32,000 nt of DNA, taken from positions 1 to 32,000 of the forward strand of contig JAAVHP010000010.1 in the NCBI GenBank assembly GCA_014799665.1, in the 5' to 3' direction. The translations under genes were made by a program, and so were the position numbers. Numbering within the stretch: the stretch's first letter is position 1; the number at the start of each line of letters is the position of its first letter. Of this stretch, positions 324-16,647 are shown one piece after another. Below the pieces are notes generated by a model, which was not told where the DNA came from, searched no databases, and saw only the letters and a program-made list of their open reading frames with translations. This DNA is from Clostridiales bacterium (GTDB taxonomy: Bacteria; Bacillota; Clostridia; Christensenellales; Pumilibacteraceae).

Positions 324-3300
324 CTAACCGTTAAATACGTTAAGCACCGTCAAGCAATGCCCGATATTATCGTCTCCGAAGCAGCTACCGAAGACCGCGG
401 CAAGCTCGGGATCGTCCGCCGAAAGCTTACCTTTAAGCGCGTACGCGATATGCGGCGCAAGCTTCATGGCGACTGCGGTATCGAGCGCTTCCACACCGTC
501 CGCGCCGCACTCCAAGCACACCGAGATTATCTTTTCCATCTGAACGCAAGCCTTGTTGCCGAGATTCAACGCAGTCCGCGCCGAAACGAAGCTTTCGAGC
601 TTGTCGAGCCGCTTCCAAAGCTGCTCGTCTATATCGAACGCATTTTCGGTCGCCGCGCACGCCGCGCCGAACTGGTAATAGTTGGGCGAAGTCACCATGC
701 CGCCCGCGGGCGCAACGCGCGAAACCTTGGGAATTATCACCGCCGCCATATCTGCTATGTACGCGGGATAACGCTTGTACGCGCGCTCGTCCAACCGCAT
801 GATAAACCAAAGATTAGGAGAAACGTTAAGCGCGCGCTTGTTCCTGCCGAATGTCACCGTCATGCTATCGGGCGCGGTCGCGTACCTAATGAACGGCACG
901 AACACCTCGCCGAGAATATCTGTACTTACGTTGTCGAGCGAAACGAGCGTCATCACGTCGCGGTGCGTTTCGGCAAACCCGATCGCCGACGTGAGCGCCG
1001 TGTCGTTGCCGTTGATAAAAAGATTATCGCTGTTTACGTAGCTTGCGCTGTCGTCCTTACTCAGCGCGCATCCGCAAAACGCGCTTAGCGCTTCCGATAG
1101 CATAGCAAACTCGCTTTGCGAGCATTTAAAGAGCACCGCACGCGACGCCGAGAACGCGCCGACTATCTCACGCGCGGTTTTTTGGTCGATACCCACACCC
1201 TTGCTCTTGCCCGCCGATATAAGCCACCCGACGAGCGTTTTGGCGGTAACGCCGTCGTCGATATACATGGAGTAGTCATCCTGCCCGTCGTCCTCGAACT
1301 CGTCGTCCGCAATGTCGGGACTGTCGTCCTCGAACTCATCGGCGAACAGCTTTTCGAACGAGAACGATTCTGCGGGGCGCGCCGAGTTAAAGCCTTTTTT
1401 GTCGACGGCGGAAAAGTCAGGTGCTTCGTCGAAGCCCTCCAAATAGTCGCTCATATTTCCGCGTTTAGTGAATGTCGCGCCCGACACCTCAACCGCGCCG
1501 CGCAAACGAATATCGGTACACGACGCACCTACGTAAATTTCGTATCTGCCGCCCTCGGTCTTGCGCGTTCCCGTAGCCTCATCGAACGTGTCAAGCATAG
1601 CGGCGTTAATGGGGAAAGTTATGTGCACGGATGAGTTGGGCTGAATAAGCGTTTTGGCAAATCCCTTAAGCTCCTTAACGGGGCGCGGCACCGCCGAATC
1701 GGTCTTGCCCACATAGAGCTGCGCAACCTCGTACGCGGGAACGGAACCCACGTTCTTAACTGTCACCTCGATATTCTCTGGCGTAATGACAAGGTTGGAG
1801 TACTCGAACTTGGCGTACGAAAGCCCGTACCCGAAGGGATACTTGATCCTGCGGTTTTCGGTCGTGTACCGTCTGTACCCGACGAACTCGCCCATCTTGA
1901 ACTTATTGTTCCTAACGCAATTTCTAAGATACGCCATAGCCTCGTCGGTATCGTCGTAAGCCGAGCACGCAAGCTTGCCCGACGGTGAAGCGCCGAAAAT
2001 AATATCGAACAACGCATTAAGCGTACCCGAGCCGCCGAGCGGAACGGACAGCGATGCGTGGACGTTATTATCGAATTTCATATCGACTATCGCGCCGCAA
2101 ACTACGGCTATTACCTTTTTCCCCGAACGCAAAAGCGTATCCAAAAGAACGAGCTGGTTTGCGGGCAGCTTGACCGACCGCGTATCTTGAAGCTTTTGCT
2201 CGCGCCGCGCGCCGAGCCCCAAAAACGCGACCACTATATCGCAATCCTTTGCAAGACTCGCCGCGCCCTGTAAAAGCTCGTCACTTCGGTCCTGGTCCAA
2301 GCGGTAGCCGTCGGCGTACCCGACGAAAGTCGAGCCGCTCGCTTCTACGGAAGATTTGATCGACTTTACGTGATCGGGGTAAGCGGAAAGGATCTCGCCC
2401 ACCGCGCCGATACGAACATTCCTAACGGGCAGCACGTTATCGGCGTTTTTCAAAAGAACAATACTTTCGAGCGCCGCGCCATAAACCTGACGCTTGGAAT
2501 AATCGCTTTGACCGTTGCCCGCCGCGTAATGTTTGCGCGCACGCTGTAATTTTTTACCGAACTCTATAACATTATCTACGGCGGTATCGAGCGTTTCGGT
2601 AGAGATCGCCGTACCGCGCTCGATCGCGGTTTTCAATTCTTCAAGAGATATAGAGCCGCGCTCCACGTCCTCTTTCATGCGCTTATAATTTTTGAGCGCA
2701 GACCGCACTGCAGCGGGCGACGACCCGATAAACAAAAGCTTATCCTTGCCTATGCCGCTGCGCAAGGCTTCTTCGTACGCGCCATCCACAATCACCGTTT
2801 TGGTAACGTTCTTTTCGAGGTTTCTGTTTACTATATTATCGTTTACTTCCTTGTAGCTTCCTTTCAGCTTGCCATACGAAAGCCTTACCGCGCTCGGCTC
2901 GCGGTTGCGCATGACCATGTCGAACGCTTTACCGTAAAGCTCATTGATTGCTCGTGGGTCGGGCTTTAAGTCGGAGTAGTCTGCGTCGATTTGTCTTACG
3001 CTTCCGCCGATAACGCACGCCGCCGCGCCCGTATCCTCGATAGCAGTCACCGCCGCCCCGCCGATTTTTGCCGAAAGGAAGGGATCCTCGGACAGTCCGC
3101 TTGAATACGCACTACTCTTAAAACTCACATCGGGCGCGAACACGAGGTTGTATTTCTCGGCGCCGCTGCGTTGCATAATATCGCTTACCACCTGCGTAAT
3201 AAGCTTGGGGTTCCACGAGGAAGCGAGCGAGGACAGCGCGGGATAAACCGCGTCGCCGCCGAACAGAGCGCATACGTTTTCGAGCGTGGTGCTTTCTATG

Positions 3301-3416
3301 CGCGGCACGCCGAGCGAAGTCAACGCGTCGCTCGCTGTGGCATTTATATCAGTGGCAAACGCGATCTTTTGATCGTCCGTCAGCTTACTTATAATATCTC
3401 TGTTTTTAAGCATCAT
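324..3416 (-). CDS. glycoside hydrolase family 3-like protein with a ~376-aa non-GH3 C-terminal extension; probably not a working glycosidase
   Basis: 1030-aa ORF. The blocks LSEDPFL, VLLKNADNVLP, KLPANQLVLLDTL, KKVIAVV, PSGKL, GYRRY, YPFGYGLSY and KELKGFAKT follow the GH3 order (N domain, alpha/beta sandwich, Fn3-like). The ATGATG start overlaps the upstream stop by 11 nt. There is no signal peptide. The last ~376 aa (nt 327-1454) are unrelated to GH3. Confidence 0.8.
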   Translation of the reverse strand: MMLKNRDIISKLTDDQKIAFATDINATASDALTSLGVPRIESTTLENVCALFGGDAVYPALSSLASSWNPKLITQVVSDIMQRSGAEKYNLVFAPDVSFKSSAYSSGLSEDPFLSAKIGGAAVTAIEDTGAAACVIGGSVRQIDADYSDLKPDPRAINELYGKAFDMVMRNREPSAVRLSYGKLKGSYKEVNDNIVNRNLEKNVTKTVIVDGAYEEALRSGIGKDKLLFIGSSPAAVRSALKNYKRMKEDVERGSISLEELKTAIERGTAISTETLDTAVDNVIEFGKKLQRARKHYAAGNGQSDYSKRQVYGAALESIVLLKNADNVLPVRNVRIGAVGEILSAYPDHVKSIKSSVEASGSTFVGYADGYRLDQDRSDELLQGAASLAKDCDIVVAFLGLGARREQKLQDTRSVKLPANQLVLLDTLLRSGKKVIAVVCGAIVDMKFDNNVHASLSVPLGGSGTLNALFDIIFGASPSGKLACSAYDDTDEAMAYLRNCVRNNKFKMGEFVGYRRYTTENRRIKYPFGYGLSYAKFEYSNLVITPENIEVTVKNVGSVPAYEVAQLYVGKTDSAVPRPVKELKGFAKTLIQPNSSVHITFPINAAMLDTFDEATGTRKTEGGRYEIYVGASCTDIRLRGAVEVSGATFTKRGNMSDYLEGFDEAPDFSAVDKKGFNSARPAESFSFEKLFADEFEDDSPDIADDEFEDDGQDDYSMYIDDGVTAKTLVGWLISAGKSKGVGIDQKTAREIVGAFSASRAVLFKCSQSEFAMLSEALSAFCGCALSKDDSASYVNSDNLFINGNDTALTSAIGFAETHRDVMTLVSLDNVSTDILGEVFVPFIRYATAPDSMTVTFGRNKRALNVSPNLWFIMRLDERAYKRYPAYIADMAAVIIPKVSRVAPAGGMVTSPNYYQFGAACAATENAFDIDEQLWKRLDKLESFVSARTALNLGNKACVQMEKIISVCLECGADGVEALDTAVAMKLAPHIAYALKGKLSADDPELAAVFGSCFGDDNIGHCLTVLNVFNG

Positions 3417-6400
3417 TCCCCCCGTAGTAGAAGGTTAAGTTGATAATATTTGCGGTGATATACCCGTAATTACCGAACGTGGTAAACGTAATCGTGATTT
3501 CCGTGTCGGCGACCAGCTCGCTCGAAAAATAGGTATAATAATAGTTATAGCCATTGCAAGACGAATACTCGACGCCGTCGATACTCACCGTAATTCTATC
3601 GTTATAGTTGCCGTTCACCATAAAACCGAACTCGACCCTAGCGTCTCTTTTAAGCGTAATAGTAAGCGTAGAGGCGCTACATGCGGAAATCGTGCCGTCA
3701 TCGCTCACGGCGAACGCACCGTCGTTATCTACCGAAGCGCATGACAGCGTGCCGAAATTATCCTCGGTCACGACCTCACGTTTAAGCTTACAAAACCTGC
3801 ACTCGTCGTTTACAAAGTCGTGCGCAATCGGCTCGATTTCTTCTGTAAGCTTCCTATTGCATTCGGGGCAAATTATTTCTTTCTCGCCCGCCGTCAAGCA
3901 TGTCGGTTCTTTGGTTACTGTGTAATCACTCTCGTCAAAGCGGGTGAGCGAAACGGTAGGCTGACCATACTCGTACCGCCACAACCGCGTTCCGCTTTCA
4001 TGAATACACGCCGAGTAAAGGTACGCGTAATAGTTTTCATTCCCCGCTACGCCGCCCCACTCTGCCTCGGTACCGAGGAAGAAAACGGTAGGCGCATAAT
4101 ATCCGAACGCTCGGATTGCAACGGAGCTTACGCTCTTTCCGAAAACTACGGAAGACAGCGAGCCGCCGTTCATTAAAGCATAGCCGCGCACCGCATAGCT
4201 TGTTACCTCGCTCCCGTTGAGCGTTGGTTTTTCGGGTAGCTTAGCCGAATCGTACGCGCTTTCTATATCGTAAAGAGTCCACGCCTTGCCGTCGCCGACA
4301 AACGAATAGGTAACGCCGTCCTCGGTAACCTTGTCGTATGTAAGCGATATTTCTTTATCACCCAAAACGACAGGCGCGACCGTGAAATGCTCAGCTGTGA
4401 TTTGTCCGCTCTTGTCGACCACAGACAAAATACGGTAGTTATTGGAAAACGCCGTCGCGCTCACTCTTACAACGGTAGAAGGAAAGGAAACGAAGCCGAG
4501 CGACTGGCACGCCTCGAACGCGCTTTCGCCTATCGTCGTAAGCCCTTCTGGAAGAACAACACTTTCGAGCGTATAGCAGTTATAGAACGCATACCGCTCT
4601 ATCTGTTGCACAGCGCCACCGAACGAAAGCGACTCTATAGCGTTGTTAAATGCGAATGCATACGCCCCGATCGTGCCGATATCGCCGTTGAATTGCAACG
4701 AAGCACGCAAATTTACAAACGCAAATCCGCCTATCTCGTCGACCCTACCGAGCGACAGACTCTTTAAACCGCTGCCGCTGAACGCATATTCGCCTATCGA
4801 TCCGATATATCCGTCGTTGTCGAAACTTTCGAGATTGACGCACTCGCCGAACGCGTTATCGCCAATGCTTCCGACAGTCCCGAAATCGACGGCGGTCAGC
4901 TGACCGCAACCCTTAAACGCGTAATCGCCGACAGTCCCCACATCGCTTGCGACGAAGCTTTTAATAGAACTGTTCGAAAACGCGTTATCCCCGATAACGC
5001 CGACTTTGCCCGCATTAAAGGTAAACTCGCCGCTGTTCGAAAAAGCACTCTCGCCGATTTCGGTAATTGTTGCCGTCGCCGTAAACGATTTTAACCGCCA
5101 CTTGCCGCTGAACGCTCTATCGCCTATGCGAATACCGTCATAGCCGCCCGAGGAAATCTCTACGCTTTCGAGCTGAGTGAACGTAGAAAACTCGTCGGTG
5201 ATTTCTTCCGTGACCGCACCGAGGCGTAGCGCCGTTACTTCTCTCATGCCGTCGAATATACTCTCGTGCCAATAGGAAATGGGATTGCGGTAAATGCCGA
5301 ACTTATCCACCCTTTCGCCGCCGTACGTAAACGGCAGGAGCGTAAGCGACGTCGCGTTCTCGTCTACGACGTCGACAGCCCACCACGACGTTTCGTCCAT
5401 ATTAAGCTTATAATACTCTACGCCGCTGACCGTGGTCTTATCGAGCCCGTCATTCGTATTTGCAAACACTGCGGAAGCGTACCGCGCAACGCCGCCGTTG
5501 TCGGTCGCACCCACCGTAATATCAAGCGAACCGAGGTCGTACACCTCGAAAAGCCTGTAACACCCGTAAAACGCGCTGTCCTGTATTTCGGTAACGGAGG
5601 ACGGCAATGTAAAGCTTTTAAGCCTGTCGCACGAGCCGAACGCGTATTCGTAAATCGTATTCACTCCGTTTGCGAGGTTCGCGTTTTTCAAATTAGCGCA
5701 ACCGTCGAACGCGTGCCCGCCGATAGCCGTAACGTTTTTCGGTATAGTCACCGACCTTAAATTACGGTTGCCGTACAAAAGCCCGCTGAACAGCGAATAT
5801 CGGGTAAACTCGTGCTCGCCTACGCTGACGCTTGATTCGAAAACCAAATCTTCTTTATCCGTCGCACAGTCGATAAGGTAATACTCGCCGTCGGCAAGCA
5901 CGTATTTATTGTCACCGCTTACGATCGTAGTAAGCGCTTTTTCATCTCTATCGGTATGTACGGCAAGGATATTATAGCCGTCTATCGCGAGCGAATTACC
6001 CGAATAGTCGAACACCTCGTAAAGCTTGTAGCTCCCGTCGAACGCGCTAGCATCGATACCCTTGATCTCGCAGTCCAATACGATTTGCTCCAAGTATCGG
6101 CAGTTCATAAATGCGGACGCCTGGATATACTCACTATCGGTAACGGTAACCTTTTTAAGCTCCGTAAGCTCGCGCGCACCGAGATAGTACATATCCATAT
6201 TCCAATAATATTCGGTACCGATCGGGCGCTCCGTGCCCACAAACGGAACAGACAAGCTTTCGAGCGACGAACATCCGAAAAAAACATTCGTGCCGAAATA
6301 AGTAACGCTGTTTGGAATAACAAGCGAAGTAAGCGACGAACAGTCGTAAAACGCATAGTTACCGACGGAGGTAATACCCTTCTCGGGCAACGTTATATTC

Positions 6401-9661: not shown

Positions 9662-12079
9662 AACCACAATATTCACAAGTCTATCGGGAATAACGATAAC
9701 CTTTTTAGGCATAGCGCCGGCAAGTGCTGCTTTAACCTCATCGTTATCGAGCGCGAACGCCGAAACCTCGTCGCGGCTCATGCCCTGCGGCACGACTATC
9801 TTGCAGCGGATACGCGAATTGATCTGTACGGCGTATTCGGTCGTGGCTTTTACAAGCTTGCTCTCGTCGAACGTCGGGTAGCTTTCGAGGAACACCGATT
9901 TTTTGCCGCCCATCATCTGATTGAGTTCTTCGCAGAAATGCGGTGCGAGCGGCGCCATAAGCTTTACGAGCACCTGCAAAACGTATTTAAGATACGCGGG
10001 GCTGTAACCGCTCTCGCCTCGATACTTGTATGCGGCGTTCACAAGCTCCATGAGCCGAGCCACGGCGGTGTTAAACCCGAACTCGGGAATGTCTTGGAGC
10101 AGCTCTTTAATGCAGTAGTTAAGCTCGTAATCGAGCGCGCCCGCCTTTCCGTCCGCCTTTTCGTCCTTGACTTCCAAAACGAGCCGCTCTATCCTATCCA
10201 TGAACTTGGCGCACGATACGATACCGCCGTCCGACCACGGACCGCCTTCCACGTAATCGAATCCGAACATCAAGTAAAGCCTGAGCGCGTCCGAGCCGTA
10301 CTTTTCTATAAGCGGATCGGCGGACACAACGTTGCCGCGCGTCTTGCTCATGCGGTAGCCGTCGGGACCCAGGATAACGCCCTGGTGAACGAGCCTTTTA
10401 AACGGCTCGTCGAAATCGAGATATTTAAGGTCGTGCAAGACCTTGTTTATAAACCGAGAATACAACAAGTGCGTGCAAGCGTGCTCGGGTCCGCCCACGT
10501 AGCAGTCCACGGGCAGCATGGCGTTGACCGTTTTCTTATTGAACGGCTCGCGGTCGTTATGCGCGTCGGGATAGCGCAGATAGTACCAGCTCGAACAAAC
10601 GAAGGTATCGAGCGTGTCCGTTTCGCGCTTGGCTTTTTTGCCGCAAACGGGGCAAACGGTTTCGACGAACTCGGGGCACTTTGTTAGCGGCGACTTTCCG
10701 TCGGGCGTAAAGTTCACGTCGTACGGCAGCGTTACGGGCAGATCCTTTTCGGGAACGGGCACCGCGCCGCAATGCTCGCAGTAAATAATGGGAATGGGCG
10801 CGCCCCAGTACCGCTGACGGGATACCGACCAGTCACGCATACGGTAATTGACCTTGCGCCCGCCGTGCCCGATCTTAGAAAGCTCGTCCAGAACGGCGAG
10901 CTTACCGTCCGCCGACTTCATACCGTCGAACTTGCCGCTGTTTACCATAACGCCGTACTCGGTATACGGTAATTCACACTCGCCCTTTTCGGCTTTGATG
11001 ACCTGCTTAATGGGCATATTATTCTTTATAGCGAACCCGTAGTCGCGCGTGTCGTGCGCGGCAACGCCCATGACCGCACCCGTGCCGTAAGTGCCTATGC
11101 AGTAATCGGCAATATATACGGGCACTTTCTCGCCGTTAATGGGATTAATGCAGTAGCAACCGAGGAACACGCCCGTCTTTTCCTTGCTGGTGGACGAACG
11201 CTCGATCTCGGACTGTTTGGCTGTTGCAAGCTTGTACGCTTCGACCGCCGCGCGCTGCTCATCGCTTACCAGAATATCCACGTACTTATGCTCGGGCGCA
11301 AGCACCACGTAGCTTACGCCGAACAACGTATCGGCGCGAGTTGTGAACACGGTGATGCTCTTAACGTCGCCGATCGGCTTTTCTAGGTCGAAAACTACTT
11401 CACCGCCCACCGACTTACCTATCCAGTTGCGTTGCATGGTCTTGGTCTTTTCGGGCCAATCGAGCGCGTCGATACCCTCCAAAAGCTTTTCGGCGTAATC
11501 GGTAATCTTAAAGAACCACTGGGTCATTTCCTTATGAACGACCTCTGTCTTGCAACGCTCGCACTTGCCGTCCACTACCTGCTCGTTGGCTATTACCGTT
11601 TGGCAGGACGGACAATAATTGACAGGCGCTTTCTTTTGGTAAGCGAGCCCGTTCTTGTAAAGCTGTAAAAACAGCCACTGCGTCCACTTGTAGTAATCGG
11701 GCGCGCAGGTACGGAACTCATGCGCCCAATCGACCATCGTGCCCATGTCGGCGAGCTGACGCTCCATCGTGGAGATATTGACGTCCGTCGAGTCCTTGGG
11801 GTGAACGCCCGTCTTAATGGCGTAGTTCTCTGCGGGAAGCCCGAACGCGTCGAACCCCATCGGCTGAAAAACGTTATAGCCGCGCATACGCATAAACCGC
11901 GCGTACGAATCGGCAATGCCGTAGTTATACCAATGCCCCATGTGAAGCTTTGCGCCCGACGGGTACGGAAGCATTTCGAGAACGTATTGCTTTTCGCCCT
12001 TCGCCTTGGGATCGAACGTGTTTATACCCGTTTCGTTCCAAATGCCTTGCCATTTCTTTTCGATTTCGTTATGGTTCAT
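9659..12079 (-). CDS. leuS: leucine--tRNA ligase
   Basis: 806 aa with an N-terminus [14 protein letters not shown] typical of LeuRS. It has an HMGH (HIGH-type) motif, an RMSKT (KMSKS-type) loop and CxxC zinc knuckles. GGAGA lies 5 nt upstream of the ATG. Confidence 0.97.
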
Positions 12080-12091
12080 TGTATCTCCGAT

Positions 12092-12141
12092 TAATGCGTA
12101 ATTCGTAATGCGTAATTCGTAATTACGGACCGCTTCGCGGT
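12092..12141. repeat. left arm of the heptad inverted repeat, plus a GC mini-hairpin
   Basis: TAATGCG TAATTCG TAATGCG TAATTCG TAATTACG (7-nt period) is followed by ACCGC-TTC-GCGGT (12129-12141). Nt 12092-12117 are the perfect reverse complement of 12549-12574. Confidence 0.85.
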
Positions 12142-12144
12142 TAA

Positions 12145-12489
12145 TTAATTATTTTGTGTCTTAGTTATTGCCATAAGTATTTTTATTAACTCTTGACATT
12201 CTGAATAAATGCCATTAAAAGCGCCGTCATCGACATAATCACATTCATGTAAAAGTTCCAACCAATACTCGGTTTCGCTTGCCTCTTTCAAAGAAATATT
12301 CAGTTTATTATAAAAATCCGATTTGCTTACGGCACGTATCGCTTCTTTTGCATTTGCACCGATACTTGTACCGCTACGCAAAAGCTGTTTTGACATTATA
12401 AATTCATGTTTTTCGTTTTGAATATCTTTAACGAAATTTACAATGTGTATTGCAAAAATTTTGCTCTTATCGACTATGGCGTTTCCCAT
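12145..12489 (-). CDS. four-helix-bundle protein (23S rRNA intervening-sequence protein / Avd family)
   Basis: 114 aa carrying [15 protein letters not shown] and [14 protein letters not shown], the hallmark blocks of PF05635/TIGR02436. The gene is visibly AT-rich (20 G+C in nt 12181-12240). GAGG lies about 9 nt upstream of the ATG. Confidence 0.85.
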
Positions 12490-12512
12490 ACTCTAAAACC
12501 TCGATCATTGAA

Positions 12513-12581
12513 TAATTCGCAATTACGCATTAACTTTAAATTGACCTTAATTACGCATTACGAATTACGCATTACGAATTA
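12513..12581. repeat. right arm of the heptad inverted repeat
   Basis: taattcgcaattacgcattaac ... ttaattacgcattacgaattacgcattacgaatta. A 26-nt perfect complement to the left arm lies at 12549-12574. An alternative 25-nt register pairs 12557-12581 with 12099-12123. Confidence 0.85.
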
Positions 12582-14540
12582 TTATAAATACTGCCACGAC
12601 GGACGCGTAAAGAAGTCTGTTTTAGGTTCGAGGAATTTAAGCGCGTGCGCTTTACCTACCAGCTCGCCCACGGGCTTGAATACGTTATCCCACGAATACA
12701 GCTGCGCGCTCGTAAGCCCCAAATATTCCCGCACCTTTTCGGTAGATACGGGCGCGATCGGGTGCGACAGCGCAGTAGCCGTTTTAATAAGGTGCAGCCC
12801 GTCGATTATCGTTTGCTTGAACTCCGCCTCGTTGAAGTCGTTTTGGAGTTTACTCATTCGCTCGGACAGCGTCTTATTAATATACTTGAAGAATTCTTCG
12901 AGCTCGATCATGACGTCCGCAAACTCGAATCTGTACATACGGTTTTCGTACCGAACGATTTGATCTTCGCACTTTTGCAAGATCTCGGCAGATACGGCGC
13001 CCTGCGGCACGGTATTGTCGCCGTTGTTGTATTTCTGGAACGAATAGAACAGCGTGCGCCCCGCGCGGTTGAGGAAGTTGGTGAACATCGACCATTCTTT
13101 ATATACGGGGTCTCCCTGGTTGGTCGGGTTGGGGTTATACGGCTTGGGCTGGAACGGAACGCTCGCGTTGCCCAGACCCAACCCGAAAAAGTGCGCACGC
13201 AACTGCTCCGCCGAATAGTGCGTCAACAGCTCCTGCGCCATGGGCGGTTTTATCTTGCCGCTGCTGCTCGCCTTGGCGTTAAAGAACAGGATATGTTTAT
13301 TGGGCACTATCGTCGGCATCTTGATATTCCAGTCGTTATCTGAGTTCAACGCCTCGAACAGCGCGCCCTCGGCGAGCGCATAGAAGTAAATATTATCCTC
13401 GCCGATAAACTGATAAACGCCCGCGTCGTCGCTGCACCAGTAATCGCGCCACGCGTCTTTCGGCTTGCCCACGCTTTCGAGATAGGCTTGCGTGAACGAA
13501 ATAGGCGCCCACAGCGATTCGGGCCACACCCAGAACGTGAGGTCTTTCATATCGCCCTCGTCGGGAATTTTCACGCCCCACTCGATATTTCCCGAAATAC
13601 GGAAAGGCACGAGCGTTTTCCCCGTGCGGAAGCGAATGCCGTTTTGAGCGAGCAACGTGCACGCGCTCTCGCGGTCTTTAAGTTTCTCGAATTCTACTTT
13701 GCAATTGTTCTTTTGCTCGTCCGCTTCGCAGGTATATTTAAGCTTGGACTTCGCCAAAATTTTCTCGACGGCTTCTTTGTTTTCGGTTTTGGTATACAGT
13801 GTCGGTTTATTAAGCGACTCTTTGCATACGTTGGTCAAGAACGCGCGGACCTTGGGATCGCCTTCCCATTTCTCTACAAGCTTTTTGAGGTACGGCGCGA
13901 ATTTTTCTATATCCAAATACCAGTTTTTAACGTCTTTAAGCACGGGCGGTTTCCCGGAAAGCGTGCTGACCGGCGCTATCAATTCCTCGGGGAAATACTG
14001 ATGCCCGAGCGAGCATTCGTCGGCGTAAGCCTGTTCGGACTTACAGCCGTTTATGGGGCACCTGCCCACCACTTGTCTGCCGTTGAGGAAGGTGCCGCGC
14101 TCCTCGTCGTAGAACTGCTTGGTGGAGAGCACGGACAACGCGCCGCTTTTGAGTAGCTTTTTAAACACCTCGCGCGACAGCTCGGCGTGCTTTCCGCCGC
14201 CTATCCCGAACGCCGAAGCGCCGAACAGCGACAAGCCTATAAGATAGTTATTGAGCGTATCGTTCTGGCTGTCGTGATTCTTTTTGACGAAATCTATTAT
14301 CGATCCGTCGAACTCGCCCGCAGCCGTAAGCGTGCGGTATTTTTCCACTATCGGCGAGCCGTAGCAATCTGTGCCCGAAACGAATATTACGTTCTCCTCG
14401 CCTATCCTGTCCTTCATGAACCGCGCAAAGACATCGGCGTGAACGAACACACCGCCTATATGCCCGAAATGCAGTTCCTTACTGCCGTAAGGCATACCGC
14501 CGGTTATAACTACGCGTTTGGGAAATTTCGGTCTTTCCAT
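12582..14540 (-). CDS. metG: methionine--tRNA ligase (no C-terminal tRNA-binding appendix; variant KMSKS loop KASSS)
   Basis: 652 aa with an HFGH (HIGH) motif, GTDCYGSPI, and a MetRS-type knuckle GRCPINGCKSEQAYADECSLGH. The blocks FWVWPESLWAPI and YQFIGEDNIYFY parallel E. coli YVWLDAPIGY and FIGKDIVYFH. GGTGGAG RBS. Confidence 0.8.
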   Translation of the reverse strand: MERPKFPKRVVITGGMPYGSKELHFGHIGGVFVHADVFARFMKDRIGEENVIFVSGTDCYGSPIVEKYRTLTAAGEFDGSIIDFVKKNHDSQNDTLNNYLIGLSLFGASAFGIGGGKHAELSREVFKKLLKSGALSVLSTKQFYDEERGTFLNGRQVVGRCPINGCKSEQAYADECSLGHQYFPEELIAPVSTLSGKPPVLKDVKNWYLDIEKFAPYLKKLVEKWEGDPKVRAFLTNVCKESLNKPTLYTKTENKEAVEKILAKSKLKYTCEADEQKNNCKVEFEKLKDRESACTLLAQNGIRFRTGKTLVPFRISGNIEWGVKIPDEGDMKDLTFWVWPESLWAPISFTQAYLESVGKPKDAWRDYWCSDDAGVYQFIGEDNIYFYALAEGALFEALNSDNDWNIKMPTIVPNKHILFFNAKASSSGKIKPPMAQELLTHYSAEQLRAHFFGLGLGNASVPFQPKPYNPNPTNQGDPVYKEWSMFTNFLNRAGRTLFYSFQKYNNGDNTVPQGAVSAEILQKCEDQIVRYENRMYRFEFADVMIELEEFFKYINKTLSERMSKLQNDFNEAEFKQTIIDGLHLIKTATALSHPIAPVSTEKVREYLGLTSAQLYSWDNVFKPVGELVGKAHALKFLEPKTDFFTRPSWQYL

Positions 14541-14565: not shown

Positions 14566-16344
14566 TTATTCCAGTACAGCTTTGATTCTTCTTACACCCG
14601 CACTGCTCGACTGTTCTTTAACTATTCTGAAATGCCCGAGCTCGCCCGTGTGCGAGGCGTGCGGTCCGCCGCATATCTCCATGGAATACTTGCCCATGGT
14701 GTACACCTTGACTTTCTCGCCGTACTTGGACGTGAACAAGCCGACCGCGCCTTTCGCCTTGGCTTCGTCGACCGTCATCTCGTCGCAGGTGATAGTAACG
14801 TCGGCTTTGATCGCCGCGTTGACTTTATCCTCTACCGCCTTGACTTCTTCGGGGGTCATTGCCCGACCGAACGAGAAGTCGAACCTCAGCCGCTCGGGCG
14901 TAATATTACTGCCGCGCTGGTTGACTGTGGGATCGTTGAGCACTTCTTTAAGCGCTTGATGCATAAGGTGGGTCGCGGTATGCAGCCGCGCCGTAAGCTC
15001 TCCCGTATCTGCAAGCCCGCCTTTAAAGCGCTGTTCCGCACCCGCGTGTGAAAGATTGCGGTGCTCCTCGAACCGAGCGTTGAACCCGTCCACGTCCACC
15101 TTGAACCCGCGCTCTTTTGCAAGCTCGACCGTCATTTCGAGCGGGAAGCCGTACGTGTCGTAAAGCCTGAACGCCGACTTGCCGGGAATGGTGTCCGTTT
15201 GAAGGAACTTGACGAGCTTTTCGAACTCCTTCATGCCGTTTTCGAGGGTGCGCTCGAACCGCGCCTGTTCCTCGTCGATTTCGTGCTTTATCTTGTCGCG
15301 CGAAGCCACTAGCTCGGGATAGACCTCGGCGTAAATATCAACTACCACTTCGGCGATCTTTGAGTAATCGCCCGCTTTAAGCCCGATGCCCGAGCCGAAC
15401 CGAATAGCGCGGCGCAGAAGCCTGCGGAGAATATAGCCCTGGTCGACGTTGGACGGCGTAACGCCGCGCTCGTCGCCAATGATAAACGTGGAAGTTCTTA
15501 TATGGTCGGCGACGACGCGAATGGCCTTTACTTTCGTTTCGTCGTTCACGCTCGCGCCCGAAAGCTCCTCTATCTTTTTGACGATAGGCACGAACACGTC
15601 GGTGTCGTATACCGACTTCAAGCCCTGAACGTTCATTATAGCGCGTTCCAAGCCCATGCCCGTATCTACGTTCTTTTGTTTGAGCGGAGTGAAGCTGCCG
15701 TCGGCGTTCTTGTTGAACTCCATGAACACGTCGTTCCAAACCTCGATATACTTGCCGCAATCGCACGCGGGCGAGCAGGTATCGCTGCACTTGGGCTTAC
15801 CCGTGTCGAAGAACATTTCGGTGTCCGAGCCGCATGGACCGGTCTGACCTGCAGGGCCCCACCAGTTATGCTTTTTGCCGAGGAAGAAGATATTTTCTTT
15901 CTTGATCCCGCATTTTTCCCACAATGCTGCGGTCTTTTCGTCGCGCGGGCAGTCTTTATCGCCCTCGAACACAGTGACGGCGAGCCGATCGGGATCGAGC
16001 TTTAACACCTTAGTCAAGAACTCGTAGCTCCACGGCACCATCTCGTCCTTAAAGTAATCGCCGAGCGACCAGTTGCCGAGCATTTCGAAGAACGTGCAGT
16101 GCGCCGCGTCGCCTACCTCGTCGATATCGCCCGTGCGCACGCATTTCTGCGAATCGCAAAGCCTTTTACCCGCAGGGTGCGGCTGACCCAAAAGGTACGG
16201 AACGAGCGGGTGCATTCCCGCCGTCGTGAACAGAACGGTGGGGTCGTTTTCGGGAATGAGCGACGCCGACGAAATGGGCGTGTGTCCGCGCTCGATGAAA
16301 AAGTCCATCCATTTTTTTCTGAGCTCTTTGCTTGTAAGTTTCAT
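14566..16344 (-). CDS. alaS: alanine--tRNA ligase, compact 592-aa form lacking the C-Ala domain
   Basis: I start it at ATG 16344 (MKLTSKELRKKWMDFF...), with GGAG 7 nt upstream. AlaRS core blocks are present: FTTAGM, FFEMLGNWSLGDYFK, GPCGSDTEMFFD, VDTGMGLER. Editing motifs are HTATH (aa 455-459) and CGGPH (aa 558-562). The protein ends at GVRRIKAVLE. Confidence 0.9.
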   Translation of the reverse strand: MKLTSKELRKKWMDFFIERGHTPISSASLIPENDPTVLFTTAGMHPLVPYLLGQPHPAGKRLCDSQKCVRTGDIDEVGDAAHCTFFEMLGNWSLGDYFKDEMVPWSYEFLTKVLKLDPDRLAVTVFEGDKDCPRDEKTAALWEKCGIKKENIFFLGKKHNWWGPAGQTGPCGSDTEMFFDTGKPKCSDTCSPACDCGKYIEVWNDVFMEFNKNADGSFTPLKQKNVDTGMGLERAIMNVQGLKSVYDTDVFVPIVKKIEELSGASVNDETKVKAIRVVADHIRTSTFIIGDERGVTPSNVDQGYILRRLLRRAIRFGSGIGLKAGDYSKIAEVVVDIYAEVYPELVASRDKIKHEIDEEQARFERTLENGMKEFEKLVKFLQTDTIPGKSAFRLYDTYGFPLEMTVELAKERGFKVDVDGFNARFEEHRNLSHAGAEQRFKGGLADTGELTARLHTATHLMHQALKEVLNDPTVNQRGSNITPERLRFDFSFGRAMTPEEVKAVEDKVNAAIKADVTITCDEMTVDEAKAKGAVGLFTSKYGEKVKVYTMGKYSMEICGGPHASHTGELGHFRIVKEQSSSAGVRRIKAVLE

Positions 16345-16373
16345 GATTATTCTCCGAACTATTTTCTTCCTTC

Positions 16374-16509
16374 TTTGAAAAGAAGGAAGCGAAGAAACTT
16401 TTAAGTTGGGGTTAATGTGGTTTACGTTGCTTTTTCTTCCTGTCATTCTGAACGTTAGCGAAGAATCTCTGCCGCTTTTGAAAAGAAGTAAGCAAGAAAA
16501 CTTTAAGTT
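16374..16509. repeat. pair of ~33-nt direct repeats in the alaS upstream region
   Basis: 16374-16407 is tttgaaaagaaggaagcgaagaaacttttaagtt. 16477-16509 is tttgaaaagaagtaagcaagaaaactttaagtt. Copy 1 forms the 10-bp hairpin CTTCCTTCTT/AAGAAGGAAG (16366-16389) just upstream of the alaS RBS. Confidence 0.7.
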
Positions 16510-16538: not shown

Positions 16539-16647
16539 GTTCGGCAAAGCCGAACATATCACGCGGCGAACGCCGCATTTCACAACCGCAAACGGTTATA
16601 TCATATACGCCTTAGCGTATATATCACTGCGCAACGCAACATTGCGC
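16539..16647. repeat. array of five different GC-rich hairpins joined by a conserved 7-nt linker
   Basis: H1 16539-16555 (7 bp, AAA loop); H2 16563-16576 (5 bp, GAAC); H3 16584-16597 (5 bp, CAAA); H4 16605-16620 (6-8 bp, CTTA); H5 16629-16647 (6 bp). The linkers are atatcac, atttcac, atatcat and atatcac. Confidence 0.8.

Follow-up and report, generated by a model that had tools for sequence, protein, structure and literature searches.

In the 32,000-nucleotide stretch of clostridial DNA analysed here (the window), a short open reading frame (ORF) lies between metG and leuS, two aminoacyl-tRNA synthetase (aaRS) genes, raising the question of what kind of element it belongs to and how a housekeeping operon could accommodate it. 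The preliminary description of the locus spoke of an AT-rich ORF between GC-rich aaRS genes, and both halves of that statement are recovered: the ORF has 345 nt (114 aa; ORF114) and a G+C fraction of about 0.33, and the fraction over 12000-12600 is 0.30-0.37, whereas metG and leuS on either side have 0.52-0.60. The metG-leuS spacer measures 502 nt and the cassette within it about 490 nt, with a membrane protein gene as a further neighbour of the locus besides alaS, metG and leuS (Table 1). The metG stop codon is followed directly by a second in-frame TAA (12579-12581), which is the start of the first 7-nt unit (heptad), and at the other end only 3 nt separate the last heptad from the leuS GGAGA. 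That no convincing promoter lies between metG, the ORF and leuS also holds, as promoter-like matches in the cassette region number two, against 2.5 expected from shuffles, and a sequence scan found no convincing minus-strand terminator between metG and leuS either. One internal promoter-like site (12422-12395) was considered and discarded, being no better than chance.

Table 1. Features of the alaS-metG-leuS locus, in order of transcription.
Feature	Position	Strand	Sequence	Remark
alaS	16446-14566	minus		ORF call in window
metG	14540-12582	minus		ORF call in window
metG stop codon	12582-12584	minus	TAA	Read from sequence
5' arm on transcript	12581-12545	minus	TAATTCG TAATGCG TAATTCG TAATGCG TAATTA
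Inner partial heptad element	12513-12532	minus	AATGCGTAATTGCGAATTA	ORF 5' leader; lengthens stem in minimum-free-energy fold
Shine-Dalgarno-like site	12499-12502	minus	GAGG	9 nt before ORF ATG; read from sequence
Four-helix-bundle ORF (predicted fold)	12489-12145	minus		114 aa, ATG start; ORF call
GC mini-hairpin	12128-12142	minus	ACCGCGAAGCGGT	Between ORF stop and 3' arm
3' arm on transcript	12128-12092	minus	TAATTA CGAATTA CGCATTA CGAATTA CGCATTA
leuS Shine-Dalgarno	12084-12088	minus	GGAGA	Right after 3' arm
leuS start codon	12077-12079	minus		Right after 3' arm
leuS	12079-9659	minus		ORF call in window

The encoded protein matches PF05635 with 89.1 bits over residues 5-106 (cut-off 33.8) and TIGR02436 with 104.8 bits (cut-off 24), both well over the cut-offs, which bears out its earlier placement in the family of proteins encoded by rRNA intervening sequences (IVS) and of Avd. 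Among solved structures 2RLD is the closest (E = 2e-33, residues 3-114), and the profile of our alignment A1 also reaches 2GSC (XCC0516; E = 0.011); ORF114 is accordingly predicted to adopt the four-helix-bundle fold. The family motif (G)xxRxxxSxxxNxxE (PMC3936711) is present as R38, S42, N46 and E49, residues that are invariant or nearly so in alignment A1, with Q35 in the place of the leading G. A median dN/dS of about 0.09 among relatives shows that the ORF is under purifying selection. PF05635 is a large family, comprising 9,387 clusters at 50% identity (E up to 1e-3). PADLOC and PHROGs returned no matches for the cassette protein, and Rfam had no entry passing the gathering threshold, nor any with E up to 5 in 11950-12750.

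Because alaS, metG, the ORF and leuS are all on the minus strand, the array next to metG is the 5' arm on the transcript and that next to leuS the 3' arm. The former comprises four heptads and an inner AATTA and has TAA in all three reading frames; the latter is the inverted array and has a stop codon in none. Comparison of the arms confirmed the inverted TAATGCG/TAATTCG arrays and their 26-nt exact complementarity, both reported earlier, with 12092-12117 being the exact reverse complement of 12549-12574 (100%), and the full 37-nt arms (12092-12128 and 12545-12581) are 86% complementary. The heptad 14-mer occurs nine times in the window (up to two mismatches), against 0.6 expected, and eight of these occurrences are inside the cassette. 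When folded, the minus-strand RNA 12595-12080 forms a 30-bp outer stem (z = -6.1), and none of 100 shuffles folds as well. A GC mini-hairpin singled out in the preliminary description is present at the locus, reading CCGCGAAGCGG on the transcribed strand, and proved only occasional elsewhere: GCGAAGC occurs at four sites, the window's included, in the cassette flanks of about 80 related cassettes (about one expected). With only three instances besides the window's, the mini-hairpin was rejected as a family feature.

The first homologue found, 70% identical, lies between DNA methylase and ResIII-family genes on an integrative element and has inverted 7-nt arrays too. A scan of one genome per species then yielded 80 loci with proteins 60-70% identical, hosted by Oscillospiraceae, Ruminococcus, Acutalibacteraceae, Bacteroidales, Planctomycetota, Treponema, Synergistaceae, Myxococcales, Chthonomonadales, Victivallales, Negativicutes and Desulfotomaculum. 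Of 86 related loci, which come from many phyla, about 75 have the ORF flanked by inverted AATKCGN arrays with arm scores 2-5 times the shuffle mean, and the G+C fraction of the ORF is 0.33 in these loci, compared with 0.46 in the flanks. The geometry is strikingly regular: five AAT anchors (four heptads plus AATTA, 33-34 nt) are found in 55/66 upstream and 54/66 downstream arrays, the upstream gene ends in TAA in 60 of 68 loci, its stop codon overlapping the first unit in 46 of the 68, and the 3' arm is an inverted array that ends just before the ribosome-binding site of the next gene and often begins with the ORF's own TAA. Since 7 mod 3 is 1, three successive units give a TAA in each reading frame. 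The cassette in the window has this canonical geometry, and it appears to be one copy of a horizontally spread subfamily, whose proteins in many phyla are 60-75% identical to ORF114. The preliminary description saw the heptads and took them for a local detail; judged across these loci, fixed-length inverted heptad arrays fused to the upstream stop codon are the signature of the family.

The genes around these cassettes are mostly read in the same direction, the upstream neighbour sharing the direction of the ORF in 78 of 82 loci, and both neighbours doing so in 66 of 79. Genes of gyrB/gyrA type are the commonest neighbours (16 upstream, 14 downstream), followed by asd or argC (12), with dapA (7) or argJ (3), and by smpB (5); methylase|ResIII (mod|res) and BrxC contexts also occur. 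Within the gyrB|gyrA group the divergence of GyrB correlates weakly with that of the cassette protein (rho 0.17), and vertical descent and cassette replacement are thus indistinguishable there. In the smpB-context loci (L012, L024, L035, L050 and L083), GGGGATGAAAGGATTTCGACGGGG stands right after the 3' arm, which we take to be the 5' end of tmRNA (ssrA); the cassette would then lie between smpB and a non-coding RNA gene. Two loci, L062 (~2990-3860) and L010 (1-724), carry two or three four-helix-bundle ORFs in tandem in one spacer downstream of gyrB, so cassettes can stack; in L062 the second ORF follows the first by 33 nt, and the apparent 3' end of a third ORF, with its 3' arm, lies upstream.

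Comparison of the metG-leuS junction among relatives speaks to how the cassette came to be there. Genomes with MetG 82-90% identical keep the order FTHFS-epimerase-alaS-metG, leuS comes next in those at 86-90%, and the other gene in the syntenic neighbourhood is a response regulator. The spacer is a clean 14 nt in L094 and L095 (MetG 88%), 55 nt in L089 (88%), with sense heptad traces straight after the stop, and 191-196 nt in L087, L088, L093 and L090 (86-90%), where a different GC-rich long hairpin precedes heptad traces. The ORF is absent from the junction in every relative examined (MetG 86-90%), so that the cassette is dispensable and polymorphic and the junction has been hit repeatedly. 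Relatives with alaS-metG-leuS and an empty site, which the preliminary description had proposed looking for, therefore exist, and such ORF-less relatives, together with the 60-70% identical proteins in many phyla, uphold its suggestion of a mobile or once-mobile cassette. No target-site duplication is recognisable at the arm ends, the filled and empty junctions are too diverged to define breakpoints, and no transposition machinery (transposase) was identified at the cassette; the candidate target site is the TAA stop codon. A putative second copy in metG context, L072, was dismissed when tblastn gave no MetG there. The hairpin of L087 (5460-5620) and L090 (5460-5625) is an imperfect, GC-rich structure of about 160 nt (fold z = -2.3 and -3.3) with heptad traces after it; several differences between the copies look compensatory, Rfam has no match for it, and it may be an IVS-like element without ORF.

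Taken together, these observations are best explained, with a probability of roughly 0.65, by an IVS-type PF05635 cassette that rides in operons, is insulated by a hairpin, spreads horizontally and depends on transcription of the host operon. The compact cassette occupies the gap from the metG stop to the leuS ribosome-binding site in an alaS-metG-leuS operon and has neither promoter nor terminator of its own, a design that would limit harm to the operon. As the 5' TAATKCG array puts TAA in every frame, the upstream gene would always terminate, and as the cassette has no terminator the downstream gene would still be transcribed. The inverted arrays would pair in the transcript, looping the ORF out as a hairpin and bringing the upstream stop and the downstream ribosome-binding site together, a design matching that of the ORF-carrying 23S rRNA IVS, whose 28-bp stem RNase III cuts. 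This explanation draws direct support from the anatomy, the family, the spread across phyla, the presence/absence polymorphism at the junction, the purifying selection and the above-chance complementarity of the arms; we infer that the stem forms in vivo, and by analogy its processing by RNase III is plausible. The arrangement suggests a general principle, that a hairpin-insulated insert is tolerable inside essential transcripts.

The likeness to rRNA IVS extends to several details. The IVS of Coxiella burnetii has 428-444 nt, a low G+C content and a terminal stem of 28 bp, in the middle of which RNase III cuts, and it encodes a PF05635 protein (S23p) of unknown role (PMC4990558). In CPR bacteria, insertions in 16S and 23S rRNA likewise contain PF05635 ORFs (PMC11270868). 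The cassette shares with the 23S rRNA IVS of Leptospira and Coxiella the PF05635 protein, a length of ~430-490 nt, a terminal-repeat stem of ~28 bp enclosing the ORF, a G+C content below the host's and a sporadic distribution consistent with horizontal transfer (PMC4990558). As in an IVS, terminal inverted repeats enclose the insert (26-37 nt arms, 30-bp stem in the fold). An IVS, however, sits at the tip of an rRNA helix (H9, H25 or H45), whereas the cassette occupies an mRNA spacer between the protein genes metG and leuS, and its arms consist of a fixed number of tandem heptads joined to a stop codon. The window holds no rRNA, and a metagenome scan for a 23S helix-45 flank (one variant) combined with heptads gave two chance matches, neither in rRNA. 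The stem-plus-ORF architecture in an mRNA spacer, as originally proposed, is supported for the cassette, and a stem-plus-ORF element of IVS type lives inside ordinary mRNA operons.

Other known elements share less. A homologous four-helix-bundle fold is found in Avd, the pentameric accessory protein of diversity-generating retroelements (PMC10053308), but unlike Avd loci the cassette has no reverse transcriptase and no template/variable repeats nearby. MITEs, REP/BIME elements and integron cassettes are likewise short intergenic inserts with inverted repeats, to which versions without ORF add a further likeness, and integron cassettes are also promoterless and co-oriented with the transcription that expresses them. 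The cassette departs from all of these in its tandem 7-mer arms and its stop-codon-anchored insertion within ordinary operons; no RAYT, attC site or integrase was found at it, and the symmetric heptad arrays on both sides and the ordinary operons that serve as host sites separate it from integron cassettes. The intercistronic RNase III sites of T7 early mRNA are, like the cassette, hairpins between the cistrons of a polycistronic transcript, but carry no ORF in the loop and are not built of heptads.

How far the arms are selected as a stem is a separate question. Arms from the same locus are more complementary than arms combined across loci (20.9 vs 16.9, p = 1e-6). Among 42 canonical arm pairs 87.9% of cells pair, compared with 84.6% after shuffling, a level that none of 500 shuffles reached, and slid registers bring pairing to 21-38%. 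Double changes of a compensatory kind are concentrated at unit positions 6 and 7; in one example, AATGCAT arms face ATGCATT arms. The longest perfect run has a median of 13 bp, and at least 22 perfect pairs are reached by only 11 of 79 related cassettes, which makes the 26-bp perfect stem of the window unusually good; the norm is a near-duplex of ~34 bp with periodic mismatches. The perfect stem highlighted earlier is therefore real in the window and is not a conserved feature, and the arms appear to be only partly selected as a stem.

In the main rival explanation the heptads would be chiefly protein-binding arrays and not a stem, with five 7-nt repeats read on single-stranded RNA or on DNA, by the encoded protein or a partner in trans, as TRAP reads its repeats. 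Autoregulation, protection or mobilisation could be the purpose, and the arms would be complementary simply as a consequence of being inverted. Unit position 4 is T or G in 561/566 units, shows no covariation between arms and is unpaired (G.A or U.C) in about half of the sequences, as direct base read-out predicts. G.U-type mismatches (22) do not exceed A.C-type mismatches (21), so nothing points specifically to pairing of the sense RNA; like the behaviour of position 4 and the 13-bp median run, this counts against a stem. The lack of a G.U bias also suits protein binding, as do the constant array length of five AAT anchors and the five chains with which both solved homologues, 2RLD and 2GSC, were deposited. 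The match between pentamer and five anchors is, however, numerology so far; ORF114 has a net negative charge by residue count, and no nucleic-acid-binding domain was detected in it. The compensatory changes at positions 6 and 7 also tell against this explanation, as does the frequency of ORF-less heptad hairpins with no such gene nearby, although binding in trans is possible there.

Distant members of the family supply further evidence for protein-read heptads. In ten members of 38-51% identity, located on annotated replicons, the best period is 7 in 10/10 upstream and 9/10 downstream flanks, as against 12/451 control windows, while the unit itself changes: CAATTCG in Nostoc, AATKAGG in Monoglobus (hsdS|hsdR), GATTAGT in Bernardetia, CAGTNAN/TAACTGA-like in Chondrinema (RND adaptor|permease), ACTGGTC in Euhalothece, GAAAGNG in Treponema, and, in direct orientation, AATCCCC in Planktothrix (drmD|MmeI-type enzyme) and AGTAAAA in Anabaena (between cas2 and cas1, on the opposite strand). 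The 7-nt period, rather than the unit sequence, thus appears to be the constant of the PF05635 family. In the two members with direct-orientation arrays (L226 and L227) a stem is impossible. Two homologues from phage records have no heptads. We judge protein-read heptads to be unlikely as the chief account, with a probability of about a quarter, and they are not mutually exclusive with the hairpin-insulated cassette. Two of these loci deserve separate mention. In L221 (1740-2636; Nostoc sp. ATCC 53789 pNsp_c) the neighbours of the cassette are a CDS of 231 nt, annotated as DNA cytosine methyltransferase, and a hypothetical CDS of 279 nt; the two may be parts of one gene that the insertion split. 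In L220 (1727-2434; Treponema saccharophilum pTS1) GAAAGNG arrays of more than 70 nt face CNCTCTC arrays; they are ~72% complementary as DNA, and the recurrent mismatch would be A.C on the sense strand or G.U on the antisense strand.

Heptamer arrays without an ORF have been described several times and never explained, and the cassette offers a concrete link to them. The GGGAATC arrays of Xanthomonas form ~70 inverted pairs with 21-67 nt loops a few nt after the upstream gene, in spacers such as gltB|gltD, groES|groEL and those of atp genes (atpA|atpG), and heptamer repeats are over-represented in bacteria generally (PMC4692102); TAACTGA repeats are known from Beggiatoaceae, cyanobacteria and Bacteroidetes (PMC4679880). 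Like the cassette, the GGGAATC (Rehm 2015), TAACTGA (MacGregor 2015) and cyanobacterial STRR arrays consist of 7-nt units, usually about four per array, and stand a few nt past the upstream gene, between co-directional pairs and often as inverted pairs. The published arrays, however, have no ORF in their 21-67 nt loops and have been read as G-quadruplexes or translational regulators, whereas the cassette has the unit AATKCGN and an ORF in its loop; but for these two features it is a heptameric-repeat hairpin of the Xanthomonas GGGAATC type. Array 15 of Table S2A is located 6 nt from bccP and, on its other side, extends over the start of XCC0516 (PMC4692102), and XCC0516 is the PF05635 protein of PDB entry 2GSC. 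The PF05635 family is unmentioned in both heptamer papers (PMC4692102, PMC4679880), and a literature search found no paper combining heptamer arrays with it, literal heptad strings occurring only in unrelated papers.

ORF-less heptads also abound in viral sequence. IMG/VR contigs contain at least 120 heptad stretches, against about 0.1 expected by our own estimate, some of them short-loop hairpins between successive genes; a protein scan of IMG/VR with alignment A1 found no relatives, and no A1-type ORF lies near the heptad arrays there. On some viral contigs, such as L149, hairpins of heptads stand between one gene and the next, as the T7 sites do. Several AATKCGN arrays occur on viral contigs (L149 4790-9093, L128 1021-1246, and the giant-virus MAG contigs L103 and L152), those of L149 being placed between successive genes, and the stop-less orientation of such arrays lets naive ORF calls read through them (giving peptides such as ELRITNYELR). 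A further ORF-less hairpin, from a high-GC organism (L098 2720-2850; PVMK01121339.1), precedes the ribosome-binding site of a trpG/pabA-like gene and runs from a stop TAATAA through (AATTCGG)x4 and a GC-rich loop of ~55 nt to (CCGAATT)x4.

A bolder proposal, which we hold to be doubtful and somewhat less probable than protein-read heptads as such, is that PF05635 proteins and bacterial heptamer arrays belong together as the components of a single widespread system. About five 7-nt repeats would be recognised by a pentameric four-helix-bundle protein, or propagated with its help; ORF-carrying cassettes would be the autonomous form, and ORF-less heptad hairpins, among them the Xanthomonas GGGAATC pairs, the TAACTGA and STRR repeats and the phage-contig arrays, its non-autonomous derivatives, while the rRNA IVSs of classical type would represent this element after arrival in rRNA helices. 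Such a system, if real, would account both for the excess of heptamers in bacteria and for the function of the IVS protein. The anatomy of the cassette (four heptads plus AATTA per side, a stop-codon junction and no terminator) is in any case precise and testable.

Two further explanations fare worse than the hairpin-insulated cassette. That the gene serves defence systems (restriction-modification, CRISPR, DISARM, BREX) as an accessory, its position between aaRS genes being incidental, could appeal to family members at mod|res and hsdS|hsdR, between drmD and the MmeI-type enzyme, after brxC and near cas1/cas2, and to a 2013 paper that placed 18 PF05635 genes inside cas loci (PMC3936711); yet most of the 80 loci are in housekeeping operons (gyrB/gyrA 16, asd/argC 12, smpB 5), PADLOC has no matches and the common factor is a spacer between co-directional genes, which leaves a defence role very improbable. 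Since insertions of this gene are also found in operons such as gyrB|gyrA, caution is warranted before "four helix bundle protein" genes in restriction-modification or CRISPR loci are called functional partners. Least credible of all is the view that the cassette has no function as a unit, being a degenerating remnant or a normal resident gene whose simple-repeat flanks arose by chance. Although only one cassette copy is present in the 32-kb window and heptamers are over-represented in bacteria at large (PMC4692102), the dN/dS of ~0.09, the recurrence of fixed-length arms and the stop-codon junction in dozens of phylogenetically distant loci and the arm scores far above shuffles all contradict it.

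Two minor observations concern the start of the operon. A full-length Gut-1 RNA motif (RF01706) lies at 16551-16629 on the minus strand, in the leader upstream of alaS, and scores 56.1 bits (gathering score 50); in the syntenic relatives L087-L090 the epimerase gene is followed after ~30 nt by alaS, and Rfam detects no Gut-1 there. The mechanical alaS call (14566-16446, minus) gives 626 aa, with an N-terminus 34 residues longer than in the 592-aa calls of relatives, and the true start is probably the internal MKLTSKELRKKW.
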